The translations under genes and the position numbers were made by a program. The notes beneath the pieces are model-generated. The model searched no databases. It was not told the DNA's origin and worked only from the letters and a program-made list of their open reading frames with translations. From a virus (Duplodnaviria > Caudoviricetes): DNA of 64,000 nt. Below are positions 11,019-51,483 of this stretch, piece after piece. The number at the start of each line of letters is the position of its first letter. Position 1 is the first letter of the stretch. The stretch is from positions 128,001 to 192,000 of IMG/VR virus record IMGVR_UViG_3300023213_000432, one strand, 5' to 3'.

Positions 11019-11038
11019 ATTGCTCAGTTCGCTGAGAC
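11019..11038 (+). repeat. dispersed hairpin motif copy 1
   Basis: ATTG-CTCAG-TTCG-CTGAG-AC. Confidence 0.85.
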
Positions 11039-11113
11039 TCTGCTGGACTTGGGTATTCTATGATACAGTAGAATTTTTTTATTGGGGGTGGGTACTATTA
11101 TAGATCGCGTAAT

Positions 11114-11452
11114 ATGTTTCGATCTTGCAGTATTACATCCAGATCTAACATACCTGTAATTAGTCAAGAGAGACCGAATTATGAGTATGAAGTTACTATC
11201 GTGGATGATGATTTTTTTGAAACCAAAACTGTTTTTGCCAACGTCGCTACTGAGGCAGCCGCCATCGCATTGATCGATATTTACTCTCAAAAAAATCTCA
11301 ACGTAGCTGGCAATCTAGCGTTGTTGATGCGATATGTAGAACATAATTTTCCAGCGTTAGATATTAACTTGCAAATCAGGGCATACCAAAATAATATTCC
11401 TGAATATTCAAAATACCATGATCAAGTAATGGGTTATCTGGTGTTTTTATGA
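11114..11452 (+). CDS. dispersed paralog family protein, copy 2
   Basis: Family motifs present; divergent N-terminus. Confidence 0.85.
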   Translation: MFRSCSITSRSNIPVISQERPNYEYEVTIVDDDFFETKTVFANVATEAAAIALIDIYSQKNLNVAGNLALLMRYVEHNFPALDINLQIRAYQNNIPEYSKYHDQVMGYLVFL

Positions 11453-11476
11453 AAGTTATTAGATATTAGTAAAAAA

Positions 11477-11806
11477 ATGTTTCGATCTTTTAATTATAAA
11501 TACTTTGGATATAACGGTGAAAAACTTCATCGATATCAAGTTATCATTGTGGATGATGATTTTATTGAAACTGCCACCGTGTTTGCCGTCGCTCCCGGAA
11601 GCATCGCCACTGAAGCCGCTGCCCTGATCGATATTTATTCTCGAAGAAATCTTAATGTGGCTAGTAACTTGGCACTGTTGATGCAATATACAGAACATGT
11701 ATGTCCATGGATAGATATTAAGTGGCAAATCGAGTGTTATCAAAAAGAAATTCCTGAATACCAGAAATACCACGATCAAATAATGGATTATTTAATATTT
11801 TTGTGA
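11477..11806 (+). CDS. dispersed paralog family protein, copy 3
   Basis: Family motifs; tandem with copy 2. Confidence 0.85.
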   Translation: MFRSFNYKYFGYNGEKLHRYQVIIVDDDFIETATVFAVAPGSIATEAAALIDIYSRRNLNVASNLALLMQYTEHVCPWIDIKWQIECYQKEIPEYQKYHDQIMDYLIFL

Positions 11807-11879
11807 AGCGCGATATGGCAAACAAGCCTTGACAGTTTTCTTGTTGGGTGTTATATAGATGTTCATGAGGGCAAGATAA

Positions 11880-12269
11880 ATGCCGTTTGATAACAATTTT
11901 TATTATCCACATTATGATCCTAGAGTTCGTGTTTCTAGTTTCGCTGATAACCAAGATGTAGATCTTATTGTTGGGAAAATGCTCCGGCAATTGTTACCAT
12001 TTGACGGTCAGCAATTAAATGATAAAACAGTTCTAGCCATGCAAAGTATTGTTGAGCAGTCGGTTTATGACATTTCTCGTCTTGGTGGAAACGGTGATTA
12101 CGTTCGTGGCGTTGCTGATAAACTATCTTTTAACGGACGTCCAATAAGTTATTGGCTTTCATATCTTGGTGTTGATATTCGGCGTGTTTATAACTCTCCA
12201 ATCCAAGAATCCCCAGAGGATACTTATTGCTTGAAGTGCGATAAGGAGTGTCCTTGCGAGTGTAAGTAA
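11880..12269 (+). CDS. hypothetical protein
   Basis: 129-aa ORF, C-terminal CLKC..CPC; TTGACA at 11829 and TATATA at 11852 upstream. Confidence 0.6.
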   Translation: MPFDNNFYYPHYDPRVRVSSFADNQDVDLIVGKMLRQLLPFDGQQLNDKTVLAMQSIVEQSVYDISRLGGNGDYVRGVADKLSFNGRPISYWLSYLGVDIRRVYNSPIQESPEDTYCLKCDKECPCECK

Positions 12270-12326
12270 AGAAAAATTAAATTGTCTCAAATTATTTTAG
12301 AATAACATCATTTAAGGGAAATTGAA

Positions 12327-13823
12327 ATGAGTTTAACCATCGAAGTTTTACCATCCAATAAAATATTTTCTGAGTTAGAAAACAATACTACCAGTTTCTT
12401 CCATCTATTATCAGAACTTGTTGATAACTCAATTGCTGCTATGGTGGATGGGTTATGCAGCATCTCTATAGAGATTGTTGCAGATTGGTCGAGCAAAAAG
12501 AAATTTTATGAGACAGGACAAATTATTGTTCATGATGATGCTGGCGGTATCTCTAGATCGGAAATCGGACAAGCTATTTCACCAGCAGCAAACGCTTGTA
12601 AAAACCCAAATTCTCTTAATAGGCATGGTATAGGCGGTAAAATAACTATTATGTCTGTAGGCACTAAATTAGACGAGAAATCGGGATTTTTAACAGGAGT
12701 TGAAATTACCACAAAAACAAAGTCGGACGACCAGATTACCAAAATTGATCAGATTGGATTTGGAAAAATCCCTTACTCTACTATCAATGATAATAACATT
12801 TTTCCTAAAGGACATGGAACAAGAATTACAATCAAAAATTTAAAACCGATCGTTTATTGTAGAAAATCGGATTATACACAAATCATAATTCCATTATTGG
12901 GACATAGGTATCAACTTTATTTGAATGGCTCCTTAAACAAGAAGGTAAAAATAACCCTCAAACTATTGGATATGGATAGTAACCCAATTGTAAATGCGAA
13001 GGGCAATCTCCAAGTATTCGAAATTGTTCCGATAACACCGGTTTTTCAAGGCGGCTCACCTATTTTAGATACGGTTTTGCACCCTAACAAAGACAACAAA
13101 AAAGGTTGGAGAGCACATATGAGATTTGGGTGGAGTCCAAGCAAAGAGGCATTGGCCGAAATTGGAACTGATAAAGATCAATGTAGATTATTTGTCAAAA
13201 AGAATTCTCCATATTATATCGACAATCGAAAAATAGATCTTATTACGAATGGTGTGGTAATTTGTCAGGTTGGATATGATTGGTTATCACCATTTAAAGG
13301 AGAAGAAACCATTGAAAGAGATTGGCGCGGTAACAGCCCAAGGCTAATTATTACTCTTGAAAATGGTTTCCAAACCACCATCACAAAAGATGCTTTCGTT
13401 GATGATGATAATTTAAAAACACTCAAGAAAATAGTTCTTGAGCGTATTAAGAAATATGCCAATACTGATAAAAGTAGGATAAAAGAAAGCGAAGAAGAGA
13501 CAAAGAATAGAGTAGAGGCTATGTTGTTGGAGACCTGTGAAAATGTTAAAAGAGAGCCCACCATCGGAAGTTATGGGCTTAGGGCTGATTTTTCACTAAA
13601 AAAGAAAGGGGCACCTCAAATCTGGGAATGTAAAATACAACAAGCTAGCGTTTCAGATGTAATACAACTAGTAGGATATCTAAAGCTTGATGGCTGTTTA
13701 AATGGCAAATTGATAGCGCCAGATTTTAGCGACAATGCCAGAAACCTTGTGAAAGATTGCTCAGACATTTTCGGAGTAAACGTAGAATTAACTTCCTATA
13801 AAGATCTCGGACTTCAACTATAA
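12327..13823 (+). CDS. GHKL (MORC/Hsp90-like) ATPase fused to a C-terminal restriction-endonuclease-like domain
   Basis: ELVDNS (N box), HDDAGGI, RHGIGGK, HGTRITI; C-terminal ADF...IWECK...Q..GY. Confidence 0.75.
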   Translation: MSLTIEVLPSNKIFSELENNTTSFFHLLSELVDNSIAAMVDGLCSISIEIVADWSSKKKFYETGQIIVHDDAGGISRSEIGQAISPAANACKNPNSLNRHGIGGKITIMSVGTKLDEKSGFLTGVEITTKTKSDDQITKIDQIGFGKIPYSTINDNNIFPKGHGTRITIKNLKPIVYCRKSDYTQIIIPLLGHRYQLYLNGSLNKKVKITLKLLDMDSNPIVNAKGNLQVFEIVPITPVFQGGSPILDTVLHPNKDNKKGWRAHMRFGWSPSKEALAEIGTDKDQCRLFVKKNSPYYIDNRKIDLITNGVVICQVGYDWLSPFKGEETIERDWRGNSPRLIITLENGFQTTITKDAFVDDDNLKTLKKIVLERIKKYANTDKSRIKESEEETKNRVEAMLLETCENVKREPTIGSYGLRADFSLKKKGAPQIWECKIQQASVSDVIQLVGYLKLDGCLNGKLIAPDFSDNARNLVKDCSDIFGVNVELTSYKDLGLQL

Positions 13824-13827
13824 TAAA

Positions 13828-15708
13828 ATGAAATTTTATCATCTTCTTTTCTTCTTCCTCACCAGTTGCGGAGCCCTCACCCTCTTCTCTCCCGTTCCTG
13901 CTCCCATCCAGCCTCGCCCTATCCAATATCTTTCGGGCTCCTCTTTTCATCCCGAAATTACCAATGGGCTTTCTAACGAAGACCGCGGCACTTACTATCA
14001 CTTTGATGAAGGGATTCAGTGGCTTCCCACTGATGTTATGCTTTCATTGAAACGTCCCTCTTCTAACGTGTTTAAGGTAATGGATGAATTACTGTTAGCT
14101 AAGCCAGAACGTTTTGGTCTTCTCCCCAATTACATTGATGTGCTTTATCCTAACCAACTTAATCCACAAGCGGACATCCCTTTAGGAATTACTATTTCCA
14201 CCAACACCGATTATGTTCCTATGTCCGGAATATCATGCAGCTCATGTCATACTACCATTATTTCTAATTCCGAAGGACATTTCTTCTTAGTTGATGGGGC
14301 TCCTTCTCGTTTTGCGGTAGATCGTTTCGTGGCGGAAATGGTCAAATCTTTGGCGGCTACTTTGGCTAATCCAGTAGAATTTGAAGCCTTTTATGAGCGC
14401 TTTAAAGCTCGTCTTCATTTTGGAATGGGGGAAAGTTATGATCGATTAATATTGCTCAGTTCGCTGAGACTCAAAGATCATCCTGACCTTAAGGCTCTAG
14501 CTCCAGTAGTAGAAAAAGCCTTTAATACCAATGATTGTCAAGAATTGCAAACCAAACTTTCTACTATTTCTAATCCCATTACCTATCGTTTTCAGCGTTT
14601 TACAACCCTTGATTCTGCCTATCCAACTTATGCTATGCTTGGCAATCAACAGGGAATGTATTTCTATTTGGTCAAGCGTTTCATCTTCTTGTTGGAACAA
14701 ACGAAATATGGAACGGCTGACAAAGATTCTTTGGTGGCAGAAAGTGGATTGGGGCGAGCTAACCCATGGAGTGTAGCAAAGAAACTCATCTCCGATAAAT
14801 ATTTCCATCTCAAAAACGCAGTCCATGTAGAAGGTGGGCCAGTAAGCACTCCCTATATGTGGGATTATGATCGCCAAACTTGGGTCTTTTGGAGCGGAAC
14901 CACTAACTCTATGCTGGAACGCAATTTGGCTCAATGCACTACTCTTTTGACCGATTTTAATGAGAAAACTTACGAGACCACCTGCTCCGTCAAGAAACTT
15001 CAGGACATTTCTTATTATGCTCAAAAAATTCAAGCTCCCAAGTGGCCCGAAGCAATTTTAGGCAGCATCGATACCGATAAAGCTAATAAGGGCAAAATCA
15101 TCTTTCAGGATAAATGTTTAAATTGCCATGATCCCAAAGCTTCTTATACTCTCACCGGAACCGCTTCTTATACCTATATAAGTGTTGGAACTGATCCTAA
15201 CTATATTCAAGGACAACTGGAATTAATTAATAAGAAAGATATTTTTACTGGTATGATTGCACCATGGATTAATCATGTAAAGGAAGTAGCCGCCCTTCAA
15301 ATAGAAGGTTTAATTTATATAGATTTGTTAAATTATGAGAATGGAAGATTGCCAGCTACATGGCGCAGTCCAGAGTTGAATCGAATCGAAGCGAAACCAC
15401 TTGCTGGTGTCTGGGCTACTGCACCTTATCTTCATAATGGAAGCGTGCCCACTATTTGGGATTTATTGCAACCAGTGGATCAGCGCCCCCATCGATTTCA
15501 TATTGGCGGGTTTGTTTATGATACCAAAAAGCTTGGATATATTGGAGATGAGAATTTGCCGGATGGATTTGAGTTCGAGGTAAATTGTTTGCATTGTCAA
15601 GGGAATAGCAATCAAGGACATGAATTTGGTACCGAGCTAAGTTCGGAAGATAAATGGAACTTGATTGAATTTCTCAAGTCCTATAATAATGAGACAACAT
15701 TTAAATGA
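13828..15708 (+). CDS. di-heme cytochrome c lipoprotein (RoxA / cytochrome c peroxidase-like)
   Basis: Lipobox LTSCG; heme motifs CSSCH and CLNCH; KPLAGVWATAPYLHNGSVPT signature. Confidence 0.8.
   Translation: MKFYHLLFFFLTSCGALTLFSPVPAPIQPRPIQYLSGSSFHPEITNGLSNEDRGTYYHFDEGIQWLPTDVMLSLKRPSSNVFKVMDELLLAKPERFGLLPNYIDVLYPNQLNPQADIPLGITISTNTDYVPMSGISCSSCHTTIISNSEGHFFLVDGAPSRFAVDRFVAEMVKSLAATLANPVEFEAFYERFKARLHFGMGESYDRLILLSSLRLKDHPDLKALAPVVEKAFNTNDCQELQTKLSTISNPITYRFQRFTTLDSAYPTYAMLGNQQGMYFYLVKRFIFLLEQTKYGTADKDSLVAESGLGRANPWSVAKKLISDKYFHLKNAVHVEGGPVSTPYMWDYDRQTWVFWSGTTNSMLERNLAQCTTLLTDFNEKTYETTCSVKKLQDISYYAQKIQAPKWPEAILGSIDTDKANKGKIIFQDKCLNCHDPKASYTLTGTASYTYISVGTDPNYIQGQLELINKKDIFTGMIAPWINHVKEVAALQIEGLIYIDLLNYENGRLPATWRSPELNRIEAKPLAGVWATAPYLHNGSVPTIWDLLQPVDQRPHRFHIGGFVYDTKKLGYIGDENLPDGFEFEVNCLHCQGNSNQGHEFGTELSSEDKWNLIEFLKSYNNETTFK
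14451..14470 (+). repeat. dispersed hairpin motif copy 2 (inside CDS)
   Basis: 23 nt (TATTGCTCAGTTCGCTGAGACTC) identical to copy 1. Confidence 0.85.
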
Positions 15709-15926
15709 ATTTCTGCGATTTTTGTCCTTGTGAATCTTGTAAGTTTGGAGACAAACATCTCTCGCACGCCCAAACAGATGATGGTAAATGGATCTGCGAC
15801 GTATGCTGGCGTTATGAAATTTGTATGGAAACCAAGATGGCATTACTTGGAAAACATGATGGGCCTTGTGATAATTTGGATTGTGAGCACCGACCTAAAT
15901 TGATAACAGAATGGAAAAAATTATGA
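15705..15926 (+). CDS. small Cys-rich hypothetical protein
   Basis: CDFCPCESC, CDVC, CDNLDCEH. Confidence 0.6.
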   Translation: MNFCDFCPCESCKFGDKHLSHAQTDDGKWICDVCWRYEICMETKMALLGKHDGPCDNLDCEHRPKLITEWKKL

Positions 15927-16129
15927 TTAAATCATCGAAACAGATTACTCCAGAAATAATTGAATCTTATATTGCTGAAATGGAATTAGAAGTGAAACGT
16001 AGAAAAAAATTGAGTTCTTCTTGGAAAAAAGGTAAACCGCCTATGATTTTCGATGGCAATGACTTAGCTATTAATACTTATGAAGAAATGATTAGAGTTC
16101 TTAAGACGCTGATTGATAATAAGACATGA
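15911..16129 (+). CDS. hypothetical protein
   Basis: ORF track; tiles with neighbours. Confidence 0.5.
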   Translation: MEKIMIKSSKQITPEIIESYIAEMELEVKRRKKLSSSWKKGKPPMIFDGNDLAINTYEEMIRVLKTLIDNKT

Positions 16130-16147
16130 AGCGATTTAGGAATTGGA

Positions 16148-16585
16148 ATGTTTGATATTGAACAAATCATCGATAAATTAAATATCGCTAAAGAGGATAC
16201 TCCTGAGCAAAGAGAAGCAAAAATTGAAGCCGTCCTTGGCGTTTCTATTGAGAAGATGAGGCAAGCCTTGGAAAAGAAAATCCAAGAGCAAGCTGATAAG
16301 TTAGTGCCTGATTTGATTAATGTGGCGCCATATGGAGATTATGGCAACCTAATAGAAGACAGTGATAAAATTATTGGGTTTCTCAAAGAAGAGGCGTCCC
16401 AAGCTAAAAACTGGAAAATTACTGCCATTACTCTAGATGGAGGGGAACGTCTTGGAGAAAGTGATGGTTTCGGATTTAGTTTTGTCAATACTGCGGTAGA
16501 TGAAGGAGATCTTTTATACGGACGTGTATTTGTGGGAGGCGGCGGGGAAATTAGACATGTGATGGTATATGTGGATGATATATAA
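16148..16585 (+). CDS. hypothetical protein
   Basis: 145-aa ORF with AGGA upstream. Confidence 0.6.
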   Translation: MFDIEQIIDKLNIAKEDTPEQREAKIEAVLGVSIEKMRQALEKKIQEQADKLVPDLINVAPYGDYGNLIEDSDKIIGFLKEEASQAKNWKITAITLDGGERLGESDGFGFSFVNTAVDEGDLLYGRVFVGGGGEIRHVMVYVDDI

Positions 16586-16588
16586 GAT

Positions 16589-16867
16589 TTGGAAGGAAGA
16601 TTCATGAAATTTATCGAGTTAAAGTTCGAACGACATCCACTGGGCATAGACGGTGTTCAAGCACGCGTGACGTTTGCCAATGGCTATGGCGCCTCCGTCA
16701 TTAAGTACCCGTATTCATATGGTGCCGAAGAAGGGTTGTATGAACTCGCGGTTTTCGGCAAGGACGGACAACTTACCTACGACACGCCGATCACTGATGA
16801 CGTGATTGGGTATCTCACGCCGGAAGAAGTTGAGGAACTTCTCGATCGAATCGAGGACTTATCATGA
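16589..16867 (+). CDS. conserved phage hypothetical protein (likely start 16603)
   Basis: FANGYGASVI..YSYG...GLYELAV pattern recalled from phage proteins. Confidence 0.6.
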   Translation: MEGRFMKFIELKFERHPLGIDGVQARVTFANGYGASVIKYPYSYGAEEGLYELAVFGKDGQLTYDTPITDDVIGYLTPEEVEELLDRIEDLS

Positions 16868-17901
16868 AATCTATTCATTATTTAGTGCTTGGCTTATTGT
16901 TGCTGATTGGGTGTCCCGGAGAAGTTGTTAATCCTGATGGCGGTAGCTTGGGCGATGCTATGGATGTAGTAGATGCGGGAATGGAAGCAGATGCATCTGG
17001 AGATAGTCAGGTGAAAGATGTGATAAGTGAAGGGGACGGAGGATTGAATTTTGATTTCTGGTCTTGTGGCAACGAGCCCATTTCATATCACGATGGCCCG
17101 GTCATGGTTGAACCAATTAAAATTTTTGTATTATGGTATGGCAATTGGATTAATAACAATAAAACGGTGCCAATTGTCGAACAATTTATCATTGACCTTA
17201 ATGGAAGTCCGTGGTTTAGCACCACTTCTACCTACTATGAAACTCTTCCTATAGATATGATTGCTCCTGCTCAGGGCGTTATGGGACGTGCCTATGCTAC
17301 CAACAATTTGATTTTAACCAAAAGTGTTTTTATTAGCAGCGCCACTCATGGAAACAATCTTTCAATGTCAGATGTGTTCGCTATTGTTACAGATGCAATT
17401 AATGACCAATCTGTTCCAAATGATCCTACAGCGGCGTATTTAGTTTTGACTAGTTCTGATATTAACCAATATGATGGATTTGAGAGCGCCTGTCAAGCAT
17501 ATTGTGGTTTTCATAACCATAAAATTTACAACGCTGTAGATGTCAAATTTGCATGGATTGGAGATCCTGCTCGTTGCTTAGATGTATGTTCAGCAAAATC
17601 CAAATATGACCTTTATGGTATTTCTCATTCGCCGAACTTTGATTGGAGTGCAGACGCTATGGTTTCTGTGATTGCGCATGAACTGACAGAAATAATTACA
17701 GACTATGCTTACGATACAGCTCCAGCATGGACAGATAGATATGGATGGGAAAATGCAGATAAAGGCGCATGGACATTTGGACAAGTCTATAAAACTGATA
17801 GCGGATCAGTTGCTAATGTTCATTTAGGTGATCGAGATTATCTACTTCAACAGAATTGGACATTGTTTGATGGCGGGCAAGGATGTGCATTGCATCCATA
17901 G
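16864..17901 (+). CDS. phosphate-induced protein 1 / EXORDIUM-like domain lipoprotein
   Basis: Lipobox LLIGC; ISYHDGPVM, LWYGNW, YCGFH, VIAHELTE, ENADK.AW.FG, YLLQQNW. Confidence 0.75.
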   Translation: MKSIHYLVLGLLLLIGCPGEVVNPDGGSLGDAMDVVDAGMEADASGDSQVKDVISEGDGGLNFDFWSCGNEPISYHDGPVMVEPIKIFVLWYGNWINNNKTVPIVEQFIIDLNGSPWFSTTSTYYETLPIDMIAPAQGVMGRAYATNNLILTKSVFISSATHGNNLSMSDVFAIVTDAINDQSVPNDPTAAYLVLTSSDINQYDGFESACQAYCGFHNHKIYNAVDVKFAWIGDPARCLDVCSAKSKYDLYGISHSPNFDWSADAMVSVIAHELTEIITDYAYDTAPAWTDRYGWENADKGAWTFGQVYKTDSGSVANVHLGDRDYLLQQNWTLFDGGQGCALHP

Positions 17902-17975
17902 AATTATGCAAATGAACAAATGCACGTCGTATCCAAATGAAGAATTCTGATATTGGCATATCATTTTTAGCCCAA

Positions 17976-19115
17976 TTACAATTCAATACAACAAGGAACA
18001 ACATTATTTATAATATGTTTTTGATTATTATCAAATCTATCTAATCCGTTATAATGGTATATACTATGGTTATTTTTATACCTTTTAACGATATTGGAAT
18101 TAATTGCAGGTTTTCCGCAATACCAACAATCTAATTGCGAGAGCATGTAAAATTGTTCTACAGTTAAATCTCCATCATTGTATCCAACAGATATAAATAT
18201 ACGATTAGCTAACGTTATTAATGGATGCCGCTTTCTAATCGGACAATATGGACATCGTTGGCCGCAAGATCTAGTTGCGCCTTCTTTGAGATGCCCTAAA
18301 CCCTTAATGCAGGGGCTGCCACAATCACATATGCAATTTACCCATGTTTTCTTGTTTTTCCTAAAAGTAGAAAGCACTGTCAAACTGCCATATTTATTTG
18401 AAACATCGTTAATATTAGGTGATATCTTTGTTGGAATGGTAATACCTTGATTTTCAGCGTATTGTAATAATTGGGCAGTTTTAGGACATGCATTAGATTT
18501 CTTTTTACAAAAATTATTTACTTGAATAATCCATTGAATAAATTCTTCCTGACTTTTTTCAGCTTTTGCTCGATTGCAATTAATGCAGGCAGATACAACG
18601 TTATCTAAATTATGTGGCTTGAAACTATTTATCCTATCTAAACCATTGTATATAAACATTCCATTTTCGATGGAGAATTGAGATGATGTCTCAGCGCTTG
18701 GGGTTGAAAATGAATTCCATTTATTGGAAGGTGATTTACCACAGTAAAAACAATTTTGTTGAGATAGTAGATAAAACATCTCAAAAGTTAAATTTCCGTC
18801 TTGATAATTTGTTCTGAAAATTGTTTTAGCGGATGTAATAATAGGATCTTGTTTTCTACTGGTGCTGAATTGGCACCCGCGCCCGCAAGAACCAATTCTT
18901 GCAAGTTTCCAATCCCCGAGGCGCACAATTTTATCAATACCGCATGCACACCGAATCTTAATTGCACTTATTTTATGTCCTCTGTTGTCATAAAGAATAT
19001 GTTCTGTCTCTACGATTTCGCAGCTTTTGTATTTTTCTCCAACAGAACCCAATAATTCCATATTCAATGATATATCACATATTAAAGGCATAAAACAACA
19101 TATTATCAACAACAA
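17976..19115 (-). CDS. double-HNH homing endonuclease-like protein, frameshifted near 3' end (likely start 19061)
   Basis: Two CxYCG..YNGLDR..N..NVV.xC units; the second continues in another frame as CNWAKNDMPISEFFIWI. Confidence 0.75.
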   Translation of the reverse strand: MLLIICCFMPLICDISLNMELLGSVGEKYKSCEIVETEHILYDNRGHKISAIKIRCACGIDKIVRLGDWKLARIGSCGRGCQFSTSRKQDPIITSAKTIFRTNYQDGNLTFEMFYLLSQQNCFYCGKSPSNKWNSFSTPSAETSSQFSIENGMFIYNGLDRINSFKPHNLDNVVSACINCNRAKAEKSQEEFIQWIIQVNNFCKKKSNACPKTAQLLQYAENQGITIPTKISPNINDVSNKYGSLTVLSTFRKNKKTWVNCICDCGSPCIKGLGHLKEGATRSCGQRCPYCPIRKRHPLITLANRIFISVGYNDGDLTVEQFYMLSQLDCWYCGKPAINSNIVKRYKNNHSIYHYNGLDRFDNNQKHIINNVVPCCIEL

Positions 19116-19188: not shown

Positions 19189-19248
19189 CTAACTCGCGCT
19201 TATCTCACTTGTTGAGGTAAGTAGATCGAGTAAAAATTATGGCAATTG

Positions 19249-19268
19249 ATTGCTCGGTACGCCGAGAC
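19249..19268 (+). repeat. dispersed hairpin motif copy 3
   Basis: ATTG-CTCGG-TACG-CCGAG-AC. Confidence 0.85.
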
Positions 19269-19339
19269 CGCCACTAGTAGAACACAGACTGGTGGCACTG
19301 CCGAACACTTGATATAGTTGTACTATAGAGAGGAAACTA

Positions 19340-19618
19340 ATGCAACAACTTAGAATTATCATGGAAGCCAACGAGAACGGACTATTGACTGCTGCAAATA
19401 CTAACGTCTATTTGGATGATGAGCGGATTGGACTTATTCAAGACATCAAAATTCATGCAGATGTTTTCAAATCATCTCCTCAAGTAGAAATTACCTTTCC
19501 TATAATTTTACCGGATAATCACCCCTTAAACGATCAGGTAGCTTATTATACTGGAGCACTTTCTGTTTTTCCCAATGTTTTGGTAATGGTTAAAGCGAAT
19601 GAAGATATTCGCCCATAG
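19340..19618 (+). CDS. hypothetical protein
   Basis: 92-aa ORF, GAGG RBS. Confidence 0.6.
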   Translation: MQQLRIIMEANENGLLTAANTNVYLDDERIGLIQDIKIHADVFKSSPQVEITFPIILPDNHPLNDQVAYYTGALSVFPNVLVMVKANEDIRP

Positions 19619-19708: not shown

Positions 19709-19728
19709 ATTGCTCAGTATGCTGAGGC
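19709..19728 (+). repeat. dispersed hairpin motif copy 4
   Basis: ATTG-CTCAG-TATG-CTGAG-GC. Confidence 0.8.
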
Positions 19729-19769
19729 GTGCCTCCTGAGTAAATATAGCAACACGGAAGACAATAAAG

Positions 19770-20105
19770 ATGTTTAAATCCTATAGCTGGAAATATCTGG
19801 ATTATGACTCAAAAACAGATCAATGGCGATACGAAATCACTATCATGGATGTTGATTTTACTGAACCCGTTGCCGCCTCGGCCATCACAGCTGACTGGAC
19901 CATCAACGACATCGCCGACGCCCTGATCGATATTTACTCTCGAAGAAATCTCAATGTGGCTGGCAATTTAGTATTGTTTATGCAATATGTAGAAAATAAA
20001 TGGCCATGGCGAGATATTAAACGGCAAATTAAATGGTATCAGAAATACGTTCCCGGATATCAAAAATATCATGATCAAGTAATGGACTATCTAATATTTA
20101 TGTGA
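19770..20105 (+). CDS. dispersed paralog family protein, copy 4
   Basis: Family motifs. Confidence 0.85.
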   Translation: MFKSYSWKYLDYDSKTDQWRYEITIMDVDFTEPVAASAITADWTINDIADALIDIYSRRNLNVAGNLVLFMQYVENKWPWRDIKRQIKWYQKYVPGYQKYHDQVMDYLIFM

Positions 20106-20117: not shown

Positions 20118-20465
20118 ATGTTTAGATTTTATGATTGGAAATGTTTTGAATCTATTTATGAAACAGAAAAATCGCAATATGAAATTACTATCGTGGATGA
20201 TGATTTTATTGAAATCGAAATGATCAGCGTGGGCTTAAGAGGCAATGGTTCTCTCACCGATATCATCGCCACTTTTCACGCTATAATCAATACTTATTCT
20301 CGAAGAAATCTCAATGTAGCTGGAAACCTAGTTTTGTTGATGCAGTTTATAGAACATAAATGGCCATCTATGGATATTAAATGGCAAATTGAGATTTGCC
20401 AGCAATTCATTTCAGAGTATCGGGAATACCATGATCAAGTAATGGATTATTTAATATTTTGGTGA
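20118..20465 (+). CDS. dispersed paralog family protein, copy 5
   Basis: Family motifs; tandem with copy 4. Confidence 0.85.
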   Translation: MFRFYDWKCFESIYETEKSQYEITIVDDDFIEIEMISVGLRGNGSLTDIIATFHAIINTYSRRNLNVAGNLVLLMQFIEHKWPSMDIKWQIEICQQFISEYREYHDQVMDYLIFW

Positions 20466-34149: not shown

Positions 34150-34225
34150 GCGTCAGTAGTTCAATTGGTAGAATATCGCGCTTCCAACGCGAGGGTTGTG
34201 GGATCGTGCCCCACTTGACGCTCCA
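34150..34225 (+). tRNA. tRNA-Gly (TCC)
   Basis: Acceptor GCGTCAG/TTGACGC, U73, CCA; anticodon stem TCGCG/CGCGA with loop CTTCCAA; T loop ATCGTGC. Confidence 0.88.
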
Positions 34226-42581: not shown

Positions 42582-42624
42582 TTAGTCGCCCAATAAAATC
42601 GCATCTTGACGATAAGAACCAAGC

Positions 42625-43920: not shown

Positions 43921-43962
43921 TTTGAACTTGACAATTGTATTTTAATAATTAGGATTAGTAGA

Positions 43963-45183
43963 GTCAATCACCACCAACACAAGGTTGATGGCTTGCCGCT
44001 AACATTACTGTTGCGGCATATGGCTCATTGACCAGAGCCTGCTCCTTGTCTATCAAGGAGAGAAGTTCGCAAGCATTTTGCTTGCTCTGCTTTTCAAGCA
44101 GATAATTGTTTCGGATGTTGATAGCAGCGTTGAGATCTGCATTACTTTTAAATCCACACTTACCACAATTAAACAGAGATCTGTCCCGATTAACTTTCTC
44201 GGTATGTCCACAGTTAGAACATTTTTGGGAAGTATAGCGAGCATCTACTTTAACTATTTGCTTCCCAAGCTCTTCTGCTTTATATACCAAAAATTGTTCT
44301 AATTGGTAGAACGTCCAATTAGCAAGCCAACCGTTTAATACTTTTCCTTTCCTATGTTTTCTGATCCCTGTTAAATCTTCCAAAACGAACACATCATATG
44401 GCAAACTAACTAACCATTTGCTGATGATATGATTAATATTACGGCTGAACCGCATTTCTCGTCCGGAACGCTTTTTGAGAAGCCGTTTCGCAGAGCGAGT
44501 GCCTTTTGCCATAAGTTGTCTTTTCACAAAAAGAAACTTGCGTTTCTGCTTTCTGATCTCCCATGCATTATATTGTTGTCCGTCCGACAACGAGACGACA
44601 TTATATAATCCACGATCCACTCCAATAACTTTGTCTGATTGTTTAGTTGTCGGAGTAGAAGAGGTAAAAGTTAGGTTAGCCTTGAAGCAATTCTGTTGCT
44701 TGTTGAAGCCAATAGTAGCGGACTGAAACTTCCAACCACTGTATTTCTTAAAATAAGAAGGAATGCTAATAAGTTGGCGGATTCGTTTTCCGCTCCAAGA
44801 GAAGGAAAGAAGATTGCCCCGAAGAGAAACGGTATTCTTATTGTAGCGAATAGCGGAGTAGGGTTTTTTGATAGGCTTGAATTTAAACTTAACAGCTTTA
44901 ACCGCTTCCAAAGCCTGATCTCGAACGCTTTGAATAACACAGGATGGAATGTTAGGGAACTCTTGGCGGAGTTAACGAGTTTGGAAAGCCCATTCTACGT
45001 GTCGATTGAAGATATCGGAGCAAGTTTTTAGGTAATCGAGGAAGCCGGCGGGAACTTCAATTTTGATGGGCAGAGTTCGTTGCATTCAAAACATATATGT
45101 CATTATTGATAGATGTTGAAAGAAAAAGAAAGGGGCAGCTATTCTCATAGCACAGGACTATGGATTTCGTTGCCTAAGAGATC
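43963..45183 (-). mobile_element. IS200/IS605-family TnpB element (no tnpA)
   Basis: Right end CAAGCCATCAACCTTGTGTTGGTGGTGATTGAC; left end TCAT|GATCTCTTAGGCAACG with hairpin CATAG/CTATG. Confidence 0.8.
43964..45085 (-). pseudogene. tnpB: TnpB with an in-frame TAA at codon 38
   Basis: MQRTLPIKIEVP..FQTR*LRQEFP.. in frame with ORF 43964..44911, which has GVDRG, VLEDL, CSNCG..CGKC and ADLNAAINI. Confidence 0.85.
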
Positions 45184-45564
45184 ATGAAAGACCAAAAACA
45201 AGACCCAATAGTTTGTTATCTTGTAGTTAGAGAAAGTTTAGGAATGACTATGGGAAAAATGGCGGTTCAATGCTGCCATGGCATTCAATATGTATTGGAA
45301 GGATATTATGGTTGGAAATATACTGGACTTGGAACTAAAAGCGTCGAATTGGTGGATGACTGGATAAAGAGCGGACACCGTAAAGTAGTTCTTAAAGCTG
45401 ATGAAAAAGAATGGAAGCAATTAGAAGAATTGTCAGAAGATCATAAAGTGGTAATAGATGCTGGCCTTACTCAACTGGAACCCGGAACATCAACGGTGAT
45501 CGCATTTTTTCCGATGCGAAAGAGTCAATGTCCTAAAATTATCAAAAGATTGCAAGTATTATGA
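45184..45564 (+). CDS. pth2: peptidyl-tRNA hydrolase, Pth2 family
   Basis: LGMTMGKMAVQCCHG, RKVVLK, VIDAGLTQLEPGTSTV. Confidence 0.88.
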   Translation: MKDQKQDPIVCYLVVRESLGMTMGKMAVQCCHGIQYVLEGYYGWKYTGLGTKSVELVDDWIKSGHRKVVLKADEKEWKQLEELSEDHKVVIDAGLTQLEPGTSTVIAFFPMRKSQCPKIIKRLQVL

Positions 45565-46316
45565 ATAATGATAGTTTGGGCGACCGTATGAAGTGTTTTG
45601 AGGATGCTTACAGAATTAAATTACCTATTCGTATGCCTGTAATATTGAGAGTCGATGGTTGTCATTTTCACTCTTACACTAAAGGATGTCAGCGCCCATT
45701 CGATGAGAAACTCATTGACTGCATGAATGATACCGCTATCTATTTGTGTAAAAACATCCAGGGGGCGCAACTTGCATATGTTCAATCCGATGAAATTTCT
45801 ATCTTATTGAACAACTACAAAACATTAGAAACACAATCTTGGTTTGAAAATAATCTTCAAAAAATGGCCAGCGTTTCTGCTTCAATGGCTGGAGCGATTT
45901 TTACAGCTAATTCTACTAAGATTTTTGGAGAAATCAGAATGGCAACGTTTGATGCTCGTGTTTTTGTTTTGCCCAAAGAAGAAGTCTGTAATTATCTACT
46001 TTGGCGGCAATTAGATAGTTCCCGCAACTCTGTTCAAATGGTAGCCCGCTCTCATTTTTCTCATAAACAATGTGAAAACAAAAACTGTTCTCAACTTCAA
46101 GAGAAACTTTTTCAAGAGAAAGGTATTAATTGGAATGATCTTCCTACGTGGCAGAAACGAGGACGGTGTGTTGTTAAGAAAAACAAAATGAAAGAAAGTG
46201 TTAATACCCAAACAGGAGAAAAAATAATTGCAGAACGTTCCGAATGGGTTATTGATAATAATATTCCGCTCTTTAATCAATCCCGTGAGTATGTGGAAAA
46301 ATATGTCTGTTTTTGA
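45561..46316 (+). CDS. thg1: tRNA(His) guanylyltransferase Thg1
   Basis: LGDRMK.FE, ILRVDG..FH, YVQSDEISI, FDARVF, WRQ.D..RNS. Confidence 0.92.
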   Translation: MNNDSLGDRMKCFEDAYRIKLPIRMPVILRVDGCHFHSYTKGCQRPFDEKLIDCMNDTAIYLCKNIQGAQLAYVQSDEISILLNNYKTLETQSWFENNLQKMASVSASMAGAIFTANSTKIFGEIRMATFDARVFVLPKEEVCNYLLWRQLDSSRNSVQMVARSHFSHKQCENKNCSQLQEKLFQEKGINWNDLPTWQKRGRCVVKKNKMKESVNTQTGEKIIAERSEWVIDNNIPLFNQSREYVEKYVCF

Positions 46317-46392
46317 GAAATCTGTCAAAGATCTGGGATATAGGGACAAGTAAAAGAAAAAATGAACTCTAACCCTCTAACCAAAGGAACTC

Positions 46393-46875
46393 ATGATATT
46401 ATCAAAACTTACTGCTTGGGTATTAGCTGCAGCATTGGTGGCGTCAGGAAATACCACTCCAATGCCTCCCAAATTAGCCCACGGTATCAGCACGATGAGC
46501 TTATCGTTCCCAATTTTCGGTGGGACTGATGGAGCGCAACAAACCGCTGCATTATTGGTGATTTTTGCATGGGGCGAAAGCGGTTATCAAAATCATTTAG
46601 TAGCGGATGATACTTATGGCAAGAAATCGTATGGCGCTTTTATGATCCAAGATTGTGGGCCATATTCTTGTCTGGAGATCATTTCTGATACACAGAAGAG
46701 TTCTTATATGAGCATCGTTTGGCTCGCTAGATCCATGAAATATTGTCCCGAATATCCATTCTGGTTCAGTATATATGCTAGTGGCGGATGTAATAATAGT
46801 GCTGGTAGATTTATCTCCAAAGATCGTTTGCAAAAAGCAAATAATCTAATCAAGATAGTAAAAATAGAAGACTAA
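46393..46875 (+). CDS. secreted lysozyme/transglycosylase-like protein
   Basis: Signal peptide; AWGESGY and SYGAFMI resemble lytic transglycosylase motifs. Confidence 0.45.
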   Translation: MILSKLTAWVLAAALVASGNTTPMPPKLAHGISTMSLSFPIFGGTDGAQQTAALLVIFAWGESGYQNHLVADDTYGKKSYGAFMIQDCGPYSCLEIISDTQKSSYMSIVWLARSMKYCPEYPFWFSIYASGGCNNSAGRFISKDRLQKANNLIKIVKIED

Positions 46876-46885
46876 AATAGTCAAT

Positions 46886-46905
46886 ATTGCTCAGTGCGCT
46901 GAGAC
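46886..46905 (+). repeat. dispersed hairpin motif copy 5
   Basis: ATTG-CTCAG-TGCG-CTGAG-AC. Confidence 0.85.
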
Positions 46906-46920
46906 GAAATAAGAGATTTA

Positions 46921-47538
46921 ATGCAAGTTATTATTAATGGAATTCAGTCCGATACTGGTCAATCTATTACCGAAGAAACTTTTAATCGTTGCAATACTTT
47001 TGCGGAAGAATCTGTTGATAGTAATGCGGATCGATATGCGCGGCGCAATCAGTTTAATATTGAAAAAATAAAACTCGATATTCGAACCGGCAAGTTGGGA
47101 GAAGAATTAGTTTATAATATATTAGTCAAACAATTCCCCAATTTAACCAAACCAGATCATACAATTTACTCCAAAAAAGACAAGTCGTGGGCGCCTGATT
47201 TAAGCGATCCTGGTAGCGGAATTGTTATTGGAGTCAAGAGTCAAGAGATCAAATCGGAATTAGCTTATGGAAGATCTTGGGTCTTCCAATATCGAGCCGG
47301 CAAAAATTATGATAGCGACAAGGGTATCTTCGGAGAAAAAGATGACAAACATTATGTGGCGTTTGTTTCTATTAATTCTACCAAAAGAATCGGCGAACTG
47401 CGTGGTGTGGTGAAAGTAAATTGGTTGCATGAAAATAAGTTGTTTAAACCAATGAAGTTGCAACATTTGCAGAATAACAAAATGGCTGTTTATTATGAAG
47501 ATTTGGCTAAGTATGGAAAAGCTTTGTTTCAGCTATGA
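46921..47538 (+). CDS. PD-(D/E)XK-like hypothetical nuclease
   Basis: GKLGEELV..PDL....IGVKSQ pattern. Confidence 0.5.
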   Translation: MQVIINGIQSDTGQSITEETFNRCNTFAEESVDSNADRYARRNQFNIEKIKLDIRTGKLGEELVYNILVKQFPNLTKPDHTIYSKKDKSWAPDLSDPGSGIVIGVKSQEIKSELAYGRSWVFQYRAGKNYDSDKGIFGEKDDKHYVAFVSINSTKRIGELRGVVKVNWLHENKLFKPMKLQHLQNNKMAVYYEDLAKYGKALFQL

Positions 47539-48365
47539 TCAAAAGCCCCTTTCGATATCCCGGTTCTAAAAATAAAATGATTGTCCCAATAATGGAACAT
47601 CTAATTCCATTAATAGAAAAATATAAAGTATATTGCGAGCCGTTTATTGGAGGGGGCTCTATTTTGTTAGAGATCGCAGAAAAATATCCCAAATTAGAAC
47701 TTTTTGCCAATGATCGCGACGATTGGTGTTCAAGTTTTTGGCAAGTAATGTCTGATCCTGATACCACCAATCTAAATAGATTGCTCCAACTATTGGATAC
47801 TCAACCTACCATCGAACATTTCTATCAACTTCGCGAAACTCCATCAAATGATGTAATGGATTGTGCTTACCGTGCACTGTATTATAACCGCTGTTGTTTT
47901 AGTGGGATTGTGATGAAGGATGATAAAGGGATGGTCAAATCCAATCCCATTGGGGGCAAAAATCAAAAATCCAAATGGAAAGTTGACTGTCGCTATAATG
48001 CCAAAAAGTTAAAGGAAAAAGTCATCAAATGTCATCAATTATTAGCTGGAAGAACAACAGTGGAATGCAAGGACTTTTCGGAATATGATATGTTAATCAA
48101 ATCAGATTATCCTGCCTATTGCGATCCTCCATATGTGATTAAAGGCGGAATGCTTTATTCTGAAAATATGTCACTGATAGAACATAAGCAGTTAGCTAAT
48201 GTTCTGAACAAACGAAATAATTGGATTTTGTCATATGATGATTGCGATGAAGTTAGAGAAATGTATAAAAATAATCAGATAACTACTATTAGGGCCGCAT
48301 ATACAATAAATGGCAAGAAAGAAATGTGGAAAAATAATAACGAATTGATTATTGAACCGATATGA
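47535..48365 (+). CDS. DNA adenine methyltransferase (Dam/D12 class)
   Basis: PFRYPGSK, EPFIGGGS, YCDPPY, ILSYDD. Confidence 0.9.
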   Translation: MIKSPFRYPGSKNKMIVPIMEHLIPLIEKYKVYCEPFIGGGSILLEIAEKYPKLELFANDRDDWCSSFWQVMSDPDTTNLNRLLQLLDTQPTIEHFYQLRETPSNDVMDCAYRALYYNRCCFSGIVMKDDKGMVKSNPIGGKNQKSKWKVDCRYNAKKLKEKVIKCHQLLAGRTTVECKDFSEYDMLIKSDYPAYCDPPYVIKGGMLYSENMSLIEHKQLANVLNKRNNWILSYDDCDEVREMYKNNQITTIRAAYTINGKKEMWKNNNELIIEPI

Positions 48366-49522
48366 AAAAAGAAAGGAAAAAGTTAAGCAATGAAGAGCTT
48401 TTAGAAAATATTAAACTTTATCTAAAAGTAAATAAGCCGGGCTCGTCTTGTTTAGGTGTTGAAAGACGAGCGGTTTATATAATTTACGCCACAATTAAAT
48501 GTGAAAACGGCCACATTTGGACAACAAAATTTTCTCATATAAAATCGGGGCATTGGTGCGCAGCATGTTTGGGTATTGCAAAGAAAAGTCTAACAGATGT
48601 TCAAATATTTCTAGATCATAATTATAGTGGTTATGTTTGTATAAGTGATGATTATTTTAATACACATATCGACCTCAACATAAAGTGCAATAAAGGGCAT
48701 TCATTCAAAATTAGTTATAAACATTTAGTCCAAAATTCAGTTGCAGGTAAATGTCCAATTTGTCACCATAAAAGAAGAAGACGATTGAGTATTGGGCATA
48801 TCCAGAACTATCTAGACACTAATCATTGTGGTTCCAAATGCATAAAAATGTATCACAAAATCAATAATATAAAAACATATCTGTTAATAGATTGTGGTAA
48901 TGGACACCAATTTGGAATTAGATCGGATGCTCTATTTTTAGGGACATGGTGTCAAAAATGTAGAAAGATTAAAAGCAAAAACGAAATTATTGCGATAATA
49001 ACTGAAAGATGTTCAGAGTCCAAGTTGTTGGATGAAAATTACGTTAATGATAGATACCTGATGTCAATTTACTGTGGTAATGGTCATCAATGGAAAATTA
49101 ATGCTAATAATTTAAAAGATGGACATTGGTGTCCTAAGTGTAGTGAAAGTTTTGGCGAAACTATAACTCGTAAGTATTTTGAAGAAATTTTTGGATTTCA
49201 GTTTCCAAAGGTAAGACCAAATTGGCTCAAAAATCCTATCACTGGATATAATTTAGAACTTGATGGATATTGTGCTGAATTAAATATAGCCTTCGAATAC
49301 CAAGGAGATCAGCATTTTAAAAAAATACCCTTCTTTAAAATGACTGATGAGAGACTTATCTTGTCTCAGCAAAGAGATCAATTTAAAAGGAATTTATGTC
49401 AAAAAATGAACATATCTCTCATTGAGGTGCCACAATTAACTTATTATTTTAGAAAAGACGATCTATATAGGCTTATAATTGATGCTTGTTTGAAGTTGAA
49501 TATTTCGCCAAAGAATACATAA
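48362..49522 (+). CDS. zinc-ribbon-repeat protein with C-terminal PD-(D/E)XK nuclease (putative homing endonuclease)
   Basis: Repeats C.NGH.(W/F).....G.WC..C; LELDGY..IAFEYQGDQHF. Confidence 0.8.
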   Translation: MKKERKKLSNEELLENIKLYLKVNKPGSSCLGVERRAVYIIYATIKCENGHIWTTKFSHIKSGHWCAACLGIAKKSLTDVQIFLDHNYSGYVCISDDYFNTHIDLNIKCNKGHSFKISYKHLVQNSVAGKCPICHHKRRRRLSIGHIQNYLDTNHCGSKCIKMYHKINNIKTYLLIDCGNGHQFGIRSDALFLGTWCQKCRKIKSKNEIIAIITERCSESKLLDENYVNDRYLMSIYCGNGHQWKINANNLKDGHWCPKCSESFGETITRKYFEEIFGFQFPKVRPNWLKNPITGYNLELDGYCAELNIAFEYQGDQHFKKIPFFKMTDERLILSQQRDQFKRNLCQKMNISLIEVPQLTYYFRKDDLYRLIIDACLKLNISPKNT

Positions 49523-49541
49523 TTAAATTTGTTGTAGAAAT

Positions 49542-49871
49542 TTGAAGGAGCACGTAATGAAGTATTTGTTAATGTTATGTATGCTATTAAGTTTGACAAG
49601 TTGTGTGGTAGTTGGCCCCGCTGATGTTTACACAGATGAGTGTGTAGTTTTTCATGATGATCTTGGAGAGCGAGAAGTTTGTGGAGTTCGTTATTATCGA
49701 ACTCCCAAAGGCGATCTCTATTATTATGATGAGCGCTTCTCTATTTGGGTCGGCCCGAGAGGGTTTTATCGGGGCGGGATTTATTATTTTGGAATCCATC
49801 CGGGCTATCGCGAATATTACGGCCCTAACTGGTATTATCCTCACGGCTATTTCCGCTACAGAATTCGATGA
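49542..49871 (+). CDS. small lipoprotein-like hypothetical protein
   Basis: Lipobox LTSC; Tyr/Gly-rich tail. Confidence 0.55.
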   Translation: MKEHVMKYLLMLCMLLSLTSCVVVGPADVYTDECVVFHDDLGEREVCGVRYYRTPKGDLYYYDERFSIWVGPRGFYRGGIYYFGIHPGYREYYGPNWYYPHGYFRYRIR

Positions 49872-50164
49872 TCTTGATCTATATTCTTGCCATTTTTGGA
49901 CTTAATTTTGCTATTCGTCAAACAAGCGGGCCTTATGGAAGCATTGCTTGGCTTCGCAATAAGTTAATGTCCAATAGGCATTTAGGCGTCCTTTTTTACC
50001 AACTCTTAGAATGCTCGTTTTGTAGTGGGTTTTGGTGTGGAATTGTGATATGCCTGCTCCAAGGAGAAATACATATTAATCAACTTATTGTGTGGGGTTT
50101 GGCAGGCGCAACTATCAGTCTTATCTTAGATGCAACATTGACCAAATTGTGGTACGAAAAATGA
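49868..50164 (+). CDS. small membrane protein (DUF1360-like)
   Basis: GP....LR..LLEC.FC.GFW plus TM helices. Confidence 0.55.
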   Translation: MILIYILAIFGLNFAIRQTSGPYGSIAWLRNKLMSNRHLGVLFYQLLECSFCSGFWCGIVICLLQGEIHINQLIVWGLAGATISLILDATLTKLWYEK

Positions 50165-50769
50165 TCCAACAGTTTTGGGATAGGTGTTCTCTTTGTCCGG
50201 TATGTCATAACCGCCGAGTTCTTAGGGCTTCTGTTGGCCCGGATCGTTTCTTTCGAGACACTTCTTTTCAAAAAGAAGATAATGTTTTTCGGATCAAAAC
50301 CTATTATAAATGGAAAGATTTGAGATATTGTATTCATTTTGATATTGATTGTTTGACCAACACATTTACCGCTTCCTTTGAGGATCAATCAGATCAGTCA
50401 ATGGATGCCGCTATGAGTTTGGAAGATGAGAAATTATTCAAGAGAGTAGATTATGCTCGACCTTATTTTTGGATTGATGGAAATTGTCATCATTGCGAAA
50501 GAACAGCCATTCATACTACCGATATCATTCTTGATATGAGAACTATGCAACTAATACATAATGATATTGGAATCGAAAGAGAACTTATTTATGTTATGAA
50601 TCAATATGAAATAATTTTGCGCCCGCTTCAAAAGGAAATGGATATTGGCAAGCTAATAGACGGTGGTATAAAAATGAGCCAATACTTAACATGTCCTTTA
50701 GTAGATATCGATTTTTCTAATCCCGAACAAGCATTAAAGCGAGTAGAAACTTTATTAGTGTTTGGATGA
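50092..50769 (+). CDS. hypothetical protein (likely start 50161)
   Basis: CPVC..CHHC; ends RVETLLVFG. Confidence 0.6.
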   Translation: MGFGRRNYQSYLRCNIDQIVVRKMIQQFWDRCSLCPVCHNRRVLRASVGPDRFFRDTSFQKEDNVFRIKTYYKWKDLRYCIHFDIDCLTNTFTASFEDQSDQSMDAAMSLEDEKLFKRVDYARPYFWIDGNCHHCERTAIHTTDIILDMRTMQLIHNDIGIERELIYVMNQYEIILRPLQKEMDIGKLIDGGIKMSQYLTCPLVDIDFSNPEQALKRVETLLVFG

Positions 50770-50772
50770 GAT

Positions 50773-51105
50773 ATGTTTCGATCCTTTGACTGGAAATATC
50801 TGGATTATGATCCAACAACAAATCAATCTCGATACGAAATTATTTTTGTAGATGATGATTTTATCGAGACCACAATCGCTGCCTCCATTGCAGACTATGT
50901 CGTTGTCACCGTTTCCATCGCCCTAATCGATATTTACTCTCGAAGAAATCTCAATGTAGCTGGTAATCTAGTTTTGCTGATGCAATATATAGAAAATAAA
51001 CGGTCATGGGCAGATATTAAATGGCAAATCGAGGAATACCAAAAATGCATTCCAGAATATCAAAAATACCATGATCAAGTAATGGACTATCTAGTATTCA
51101 TGTGA
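50773..51105 (+). CDS. dispersed paralog family protein, copy 7
   Basis: Family motifs. Confidence 0.85.
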   Translation: MFRSFDWKYLDYDPTTNQSRYEIIFVDDDFIETTIAASIADYVVVTVSIALIDIYSRRNLNVAGNLVLLMQYIENKRSWADIKWQIEEYQKCIPEYQKYHDQVMDYLVFM

Positions 51106-51117
51106 GAAAGAAGTAAA

Positions 51118-51453
51118 ATGTTTCAATCTTTTGATTGGAGATATCTGGGTTATAATCTAAAAACAAATCAATCTCAATACGAAACTACTTTCGTAGATGA
51201 TGATTTTATCGAAACAGTCGTCGTTTCCTTCATCAGCACCATCAATGACGGATCTTCCCTCGCCGCTGTTCTGATTGATATTTACTCTCAAAGAAATCTC
51301 AATGTAGCGGGCAATCTTGTGTTGTTAATGCAATATATAGAAAATAAATGGCCATGGATAGATATTAAGTGGCAAATCGAGCGTTATCAAAAAGAAGTTC
51401 CTGAATACCAGAAATACCACGATCAAGTAATGGATTATCTAATATTCATGTAG
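51118..51453 (+). CDS. dispersed paralog family protein, copy 8
   Basis: Family motifs; tandem with copy 7. Confidence 0.85.
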   Translation: MFQSFDWRYLGYNLKTNQSQYETTFVDDDFIETVVVSFISTINDGSSLAAVLIDIYSQRNLNVAGNLVLLMQYIENKWPWIDIKWQIERYQKEVPEYQKYHDQVMDYLIFM

Positions 51454-51463
51454 AAGTTGTTAT

Positions 51464-51483
51464 ATTGCTCGGTACGCCGAGAC
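51464..51483 (+). repeat. dispersed hairpin motif copy 6
   Basis: ATTG-CTCGG-TACG-CCGAG-AC, identical to copy 3. Confidence 0.85.

Follow-up and report, generated by a model that had tools for sequence, protein, structure and literature searches.

CasPhi-type solitary repeat units in a huge-phage genome fragment, with a putative role on phage messages

Results

Hairpins of the CasPhi handle type

[quoted passage not shown] The window covers bases 128001-192000 of the 198,652-bp IMG/VR record IMGVR_UViG_3300023213_000432 (CheckV completeness 46%), which is a fragment of a huge phage with a genome of roughly 430 kb. On the same grounds the window copies are classed as solitary repeat units (SRUs), i.e., single repeat mimics away from cas genes. 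The explanation ranked first, held with about equal belief and doubt, is that they would serve as CasPhi docking and cleavage sites on sense transcripts and so exert post-transcriptional control of the phage's own messages. The six units, as located by an exact pattern scan, are as follows.

11019-11038, + strand: SRU-1, stem CTCAG/CTGAG, loop TTCG
14451-14470, + strand: SRU-2, handle identical to SRU-1; sense, coding, in-frame insertion
19249-19268, + strand: SRU-3, stem CTCGG/CCGAG, loop TACG; identical to the repeat end of genome L012 (see below)
19709-19728, + strand: SRU-4, stem CTCAG/CTGAG, loop TATG, end GGC instead of GAC
46886-46905, + strand: SRU-5, loop TGCG; remnant of the repeat 5' half (TAGAAGAC...TCAAT) upstream
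51464-51483, + strand: SRU-6, handle identical to SRU-3 (stem CTCGG/CCGAG, loop TACG)

The exact 20-nt pattern occurred six times in the window, always on the + strand, with none expected (100 shuffles), and the stem-loop core alone gave the same six sites (0.03 expected). The six sites and single orientation claimed in an earlier note on this DNA were thus borne out, and the genome-wide scan that it had proposed returned, over all 198,652 bp, the six window copies alone, every one forward. The compensatory stem change that it had pointed out was also recovered: stem pair 4 is A-U in four copies (CTCAG/CTGAG) and G-C in two (CTCGG/CCGAG), with loops TTCG and TACG in two copies each and TGCG and TATG in one each. 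Spacing between copies ranged from 460 bp to 27 kb, and three of them adjoin, as had been observed before, members of a family of paralogues (13 members of ~110 amino acids, aa). A decaying seventh unit lies 7.6 kb upstream of the window (genome 120391-120410, + strand), with one stem pair broken, a start codon 35 nt downstream and 10 nt upstream (ATCGATTAAT) in common with SRU-2, the copy inside a gene. A scan for the structure alone (ATTG, a 5-bp stem of any sequence, a loop of 3-5 nt, then AC or GC) yielded no extra family members; shuffled sequence yields a handful of unrelated matches. An Rfam search matched three transfer RNA (tRNA) genes, nothing at the hairpins and no family for the hairpin, and a 10-kb piece compared with phage records by megablast matched nothing.

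Identity with CasPhi array repeats

Several huge-phage contigs came up when viral contigs were scanned for the motif, among them L012, a complete 529-kb genome in which nine copies recur at a period of 73 bp as parts of a 36-nt repeat, i.e., a CRISPR array. The last 20 nt of this repeat are identical to SRU-3 and SRU-6, and the array lies directly 3' of a gene encoding a 796-aa protein that matches CasPhi-2 (PDB 7lys) with E = 6e-210. Scanning metagenomes for two copies at array spacing added six more arrays. The count of arrays with this handle came to seven, of which four stand next to casPhi. The handle forms the 3' end of the repeat in the cas12j-adjacent arrays of L012 and also of L046, L042, L044 and L047. 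The array of L043, a 3-kb contig without a cas gene on it, has a handle identical to SRU-1 and SRU-2; the SRU-1 handle is also identical to one repeat of the L046 array, which stands beside a casPhi gene on a 466-kb contig. No AT-rich array of the CTCAG type was found among the viral contigs, and the metagenome scan gave GC-rich arrays only. The exact 19-nt handle strings, written as DNA or RNA, were not found in a literature text search.

In published descriptions, Cas12j repeats carry a central 'ATTGC', end in 'GAC' on the 3' side and form a 5-nt stem closed by a tetraloop (PMC9917002), and this signature is present in all six copies, SRU-4 ending in GGC. In the Cas12j3 structure, R338 contacts C-1 and U-18, while G-17 pairs with A-2 (PMC8298400). 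When sequence positions only are compared, U-18, G-17, A-2 and C-1 are invariant in five of the six copies, SRU-4 having G for A-2. Counted from the 3' end of the motif, the contacted positions are the ATTG and AC flanks, so that the CasPhi identity explains those flanks. The remark that no annotated feature explains the hairpin therefore holds for this record, but the CasPhi CRISPR repeat accounts for both the stem and its flanks. Stem covariation extends over arrays and solitary copies alike: every one of the five forms (CTCAG, CTCGG, CCCAG, CCCGG and CTCCT) is accompanied by its matching 3' arm.

A TAGAA box was found at most 26 nt upstream of four of the six copies (background 3.8%, P = 3e-5 in a post hoc test). 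CasPhi repeats like the one in L047 begin with TAGAA, and the distance from box to handle varies. The copies are accordingly read as derivatives of full repeats in which the 5' half decayed and the 20-nt part found in mature crRNA stayed intact. A decayed 5' half beside an intact handle is the main argument for selection on the handle, and what selection appears to have kept is exactly the 20 nt of the mature form: ATTG, the 5-bp stem, the tetraloop and AC.

Position of the units in the window

From their setting, we infer that all six units are transcribed in sense orientation within phage messages. Five of them have a same-strand start codon 15-75 nt downstream, and the sixth (SRU-2) lies inside a gene. 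A paralogue pair (11114-11452 and 11477-11806) starts 75 nt downstream of SRU-1, which directly follows a remnant of the repeat 5' half (TAGAAGAAC...TCAAT). SRU-3 occupies a divergent intergenic region 71 nt upstream of an open reading frame (ORF, 19340-19618), within a 123-nt stretch whose fold has z = -2.5. SRU-4 precedes the paralogue pair 19770-20105 and 20118-20465 by 41 nt, and a weak sigma-70-like site ends 3 nt upstream of it. SRU-5, whose handle recurs as a solitary unit in contig L026, is 15 nt upstream of ORF 46921-47538, at the head of a gene run that includes a DNA methyltransferase and an HNH endonuclease. SRU-6 has the paralogue pair 50773-51453 on its 5' side and, 22 nt further on, the start of the metallophosphoesterase gene 51506-52153.

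The in-frame position of the 14451 copy within a 626-aa ORF had been overlooked in the earlier note. The gene (13828-15708) encodes a RoxA-like cytochrome-c domain near the C-terminus. The insertion that carries SRU-2 falls in a variable loop of this conserved gene and is gapped in all ten aligned full-length homologues (587-612 aa). Full-length homologues of the 626-aa protein occur on other very large contigs, with 41-60% identity over most of the length and 24% for one distant member, and the protein is also listed on a 327-kb contig; the listed CasPhi homologues included none from a contig of this length. The structural features that accompany the units are listed below.

11039-11080, + strand: weak terminator-like hairpin directly after SRU-1 (7-bp stem, large loop, then seven U, by fold)
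14437-14472, + strand: in-frame insertion of ~12-13 codons (YDRLILLSSLRL), one repeat length, in gene 13828-15708
19270-19296, + strand: stable 9-bp hairpin immediately 3' of SRU-3, without a U run

The hairpin at 11039-11080 was not reported by the terminator scan; judging by its fold, SRU-1 might, with some uncertainty, also be released as a small RNA of ~65 nt. At 19709-19760, the SRU-4 handle and the bases upstream of it can also pair with a further CTGAG and AT-rich sequence that come after the handle, giving a competing alternative fold.

Neither CasPhi nor hairpins of this kind are present in three relatives of the phage, of which two are complete. Being absent at the orthologous sites of relatives, the units are regarded as recent, lineage-specific gains; SRU-6 is missing together with the preceding paralogue pair at the orthologous place in relatives L038-L041. 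Conservation, which the earlier note had proposed as a check, is thus mixed: the nearest relatives lack the hairpin where it would be expected by orthology, but the same 20-mer is the CRISPR repeat of many other huge phages.

Solitary units in other huge phages

Solitary copies were found in about ten other huge-phage records with estimated genomes of 450-530 kb, usually 0-45 nt before a ribosome-binding site and ATG. Among these records, CasPhi was present only in the complete genome G001. Every CasPhi locus inspected with at least ~8 kb of flank (7-10 kb on each side, four loci) had solitary units nearby. The order in L046 is casPhi, array, unit, 279-aa gene, unit and 97-aa gene, with a tandem unit pair on the opposite strand 40 nt upstream of casPhi (10565-10621). 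A receiver-domain gene stands between the last two repeats of L069, a 421-kb NCBI contig; in both L046 and L069, protein-coding genes lie between repeats just after the array, placed like spacers. Two leader units occur in L068, a Cas12j-SF05 locus, and two leader units plus one unit inside a gene in L071. L070, which carries leader units as well, has one unit and an HU-like gene after casPhi (10001-12330), and no array was found from 1 kb upstream to ~3.8 kb downstream of casPhi. Taking the called genes of L068 to L071, eight of nine units are sense relative to the adjacent or enclosing gene.

A full repeat stands in frame within casPhi itself in L042, as a 16-aa insertion relative to the L012 protein (reverse strand, ~650-690 of the reversed locus). 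This intragenic repeat may be a self-cleavage site that autoregulates the nuclease mRNA. Handle variants differ between units and array within one phage, so the heterogeneity seen in the window is not unusual.

Solitary repeats at most ~150 nt upstream of casPhi and pointing away from it were observed in three loci (L046 10565-10621, L070 9833-9852 and L071 9926-9945). Their stems are often slightly unlike that of the array (CCCGG versus CTCGG), and they recall autoregulators of the CreR type; the one in L071 is also the sense leader of the neighbouring minus-strand gene. In other phages only, namely one group of GC-richer huge phages, a GGTGTA box occurs 10-12 nt upstream of solitary units (L058-L060, L063, L064, L069:8145, L070:12143 and 12295), and in L070 it is also found 12 nt upstream of a start codon. 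Such a box could act as a phage-specific promoter element, with transcripts beginning at the handle.

Other features of the record

In the record, only TnpB-like proteins matched the CasPhi searches, in the RuvC region. They were set aside as partners of the hairpins, being located on other strands and in other places. These four proteins (RuvC and zinc-ribbon part, E down to 1.6e-17) and the tRNA genes are listed here.

Window 43964-44911, - strand: TnpB-like protein
Window 63375 to the end, + strand: TnpB-like protein
Genome 44381-45475: TnpB-like protein
Genome 100350-101477: TnpB-like protein
Window 34150-34222, 55195-55269 and 56987-57060, + strand: tRNA genes (Rfam)

The window also encodes a gene of the isocitrate lyase family at 53639-54883 (Pfam ICL, E = 5e-98), an unusual auxiliary metabolic gene.

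Discussion

Putative CasPhi sites on phage messages

Sequence identity, structure conservation, position and comparative distribution of the units are what the analysis shows; the putative binding, cleavage and effect on expression would run as follows. CasPhi would recognise the handle within the transcript, use its RuvC site to cut the message immediately 5' of this element, in the way it cuts pre-crRNA, and keep hold of the new 5' end, the first ~20 nt of the message becoming a pseudo-guide. At 46886 and 51464, the ~20 nt held in this way would take in the ribosome-binding site. Selection would act on the processing or repression of messages that depends on CasPhi, and titration of the nuclease would be a side effect. 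The DNA of the phage itself would escape cutting, as GAC or GGC, and not a T-rich sequence, stands at the place of the protospacer adjacent motif (PAM). The nuclease could be supplied by the phage itself, from the unrecovered ~54% of its genome, or by a co-infecting huge phage. CasPhi is known to process its own pre-crRNA with the RuvC site (PMC8298400), and CasPhi-2, whose PAM is TBN, lowers the expression of repeat-carrying mRNA in yeast (PMC9943656). Control of own messages is ranked first because CasPhi-positive phages keep units beside and inside their cas genes, and because repeat-sized in-frame insertions (SRU-2 and that of L042) make sense as cleavage sites. The lack of CasPhi in the unit-free relatives, two of which are complete, was also counted in its favour.

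Several observations weigh against this explanation. Neither cas12j (tblastn and a profile of 16 CasPhi proteins) nor a CRISPR array was found in the 198.6-kb record. Solitary units without a detectable CasPhi also occur in G002 (76% complete) and G003 (85% complete); if the CheckV values hold, not every unit-bearing phage can encode the nuclease. Genes downstream of the units, when compared between phages, were unrelated and gave no conserved regulon. Moreover, in a tightly packed genome nearly every intergenic site is a leader, and the position of the units thus argues only weakly for control of the downstream gene.

Alternative explanations

The close rival, held as somewhat less probable, is a role similar to that of RNA anti-CRISPRs (Racrs): in a phage without a CasPhi of its own, abundant messages carrying the handle would be loaded by the CasPhi of a competing huge phage in place of targeting crRNAs, and effects on downstream genes would be incidental. 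The absence of cas12j and array from the record suits such decoys, as do the solitary units in the 76-85% complete records without CasPhi; from the product of the unrecovered fractions, and if the CheckV values hold, the probability that a cas12j gene is present unseen in every one of the five unit-bearing phages without CasPhi is estimated at ~0.005. Several handle variants are found in the window, each matching arrays of different phages, viral SRUs are a demonstrated anti-CRISPR strategy (PMC10651486), and CasPhi arrays are thought to target other phages (PMC7162821). Decoys would be self-defeating, however, in CasPhi-positive phages, which have units next to and even inside their own cas gene and show equal handle heterogeneity. 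Racrs are typically small promoter-led RNAs, whereas no promoter was predicted upstream of the units by a scan that scored sigma-70-like sites (phage-specific promoters fall outside it), and a terminator-like end is seen at SRU-1 alone. Of the 66 spacers taken from the collected CasPhi arrays, none matched this record. It is improbable that the units are instead single-repeat guides, each making the ~20 nt that follow a CasPhi guide aimed at the same locus in unit-less related phages (exclusion or homing) or at promoter repression like that of CreR and Cracr. A type V handle plus any following sequence is a complete guide, GAC in the PAM place would protect the own locus, and SRU-6 with its neighbouring paralogue pair is a lineage-specific insertion relative to relatives; the units upstream of casPhi in L046, L070 and L071, with their likeness to CreR, and the single unit after casPhi in array-less L070 also fit. 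But within the record the sequences 3' of the handles match nowhere else, and 11-nt seeds match no more often than by chance, a single match following a TBN-type PAM. In crRNA-like regulators, at least 9-11 PAM-proximal nt of a pseudo-spacer match a promoter next to a PAM; the record yielded no PAM-flanked seed match in excess of chance. The presumed guides are ordinary leaders with a ribosome-binding site and start codon, and the inferred empty allele of SRU-2 would have neither a T-rich PAM nor a matching seed. More doubtful still is the form in which such self-protected guides direct CasPhi to cut unit-less co-infecting relatives at the same locus, excluding them or copying unit and cassette by repair; if true, it would be a natural CRISPR-based homing or gene-drive system.

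The units are also unlikely to be neutral relics, functionless now, left behind by CasPhi arrays that once existed or by recombination with a CasPhi phage. Decay of the 5' halves, the lost stem pairing of the copy 7.6 kb upstream of the window and the absence of units at orthologous sites in relatives would be expected of relics. The six copies, by contrast, keep all 20 positions intact or compensated beside flanks that cannot be aligned, decay ends exactly at the boundary of the mature handle, all copies are in sense orientation, and the same pattern recurs in many phages. A hairpin independent of CasPhi (5' mRNA stabiliser, mobile palindrome resembling repetitive extragenic palindromes (REP), terminator, or operator at transcription starts) is very improbable. 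Tetraloops of the UNCG type are intrinsically stable, the copies lie in leaders, and the TATATT hexamer that the earlier note had described before two of them is present. Half of that hexamer, however, is the motif's own ATT, a promoter is not supported, and the invariant single-stranded ATTG and AC flanks are explained only by the CasPhi handle. The 20-mers being identical to array repeats, a CasPhi-independent hairpin is largely refuted. Its particular forms were set aside one after another: no U run directly follows any of the six hairpins, as an intrinsic terminator would have; sigma-70-like sites upstream are no commoner than chance, against a promoter or the suggested operator overlapping a -10 element; and six or seven copies in one orientation, one inside an ORF, do not make a family of REP or bacterial interspersed mosaic elements, whose copies are numerous, extragenic and found in both orientations. 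No Rfam family matches the hairpin either. Nothing points to the single-stranded DNA role that had been considered. What stands of the earlier interpretation is a conserved, structurally selected sense-strand RNA hairpin, most plausibly a processing site; its identity as a CasPhi handle had been missed.

Relation to known systems

The closest match to the hairpins is with the CasPhi repeats of the huge 'Biggiephage' phages, with which they share the identical 20 nt, the same signature and the same contact positions (PMC7162821; PMC9917002; PMC8298400; PDB 7lys). Unlike array repeats, the window copies are solitary and embedded in messages, with degenerate 5' halves, no spacer periodicity and no cas12j in the record; the marks of a CRISPR array (at least two repeats, ~36-nt spacers, an effector nearby) were not found in this record, which is ~46% complete. 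Viral SRUs and Racrs (PMC10651486; review PMC11656645) are likewise single repeat mimics away from cas genes that would compete for the Cas protein. As described, however, Racrs mimic host systems, whereas the window copies mimic a phage-borne system and stand in leaders or an ORF; unlike Racrs, CasPhi-type units occur equally in phages that own the cognate nuclease. The Racr paper makes no mention of Cas12j or huge phages (PMC10651486).

CreR/CreA, standalone repeats of cas loci and viral Cracrs are degenerate repeats that regulate through a Cas effector (PMC10120712; 10.1101/2023.03.10.532045; 10.1101/2024.10.29.618823), a class that the casPhi-upstream units of L046, L070 and L071 resemble and whose papers do not mention Cas12j or CasPhi. 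These regulators act by partial pairing of spacer and promoter beside a PAM, a type of target that the record did not yield for the six units; in contrast, the window units would probably act on their own transcript. Switches built from Cas12 and pre-crRNA, CasPhi-2 included, are a further likeness, since a type V repeat in an untranslated region leads to mRNA cutting and lowered expression (PMC9943656). That switch is a device engineered in yeast, of which the window would be a putative natural counterpart. For types I, II and V-A, SRUs, Racrs and crRNA-like regulators have been described (PMC10651486; PMC10120712; 10.1101/2024.10.29.618823). The literature found did not mention Cas12j units, units within messages or units in a cas ORF, and CreR-type autoregulators of type V-J are not described in the searchable literature. 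SRUs and CasPhi are each already known; CasPhi-type SRUs within messages were not found in the searchable literature.

Conclusions

Known as a hypercompact genome editor, CasPhi has hardly been studied for what it does in the life of huge phages. The presence of its handle in messages, after arrays and in casPhi suggests RNA processing of own transcripts or RNA decoys between phages. The units could provide natural compact RNA switches for CasPhi-based tools. Either explanation, if true, would carry CRISPR biology beyond defence, into the control of phage genes or conflict between phages.

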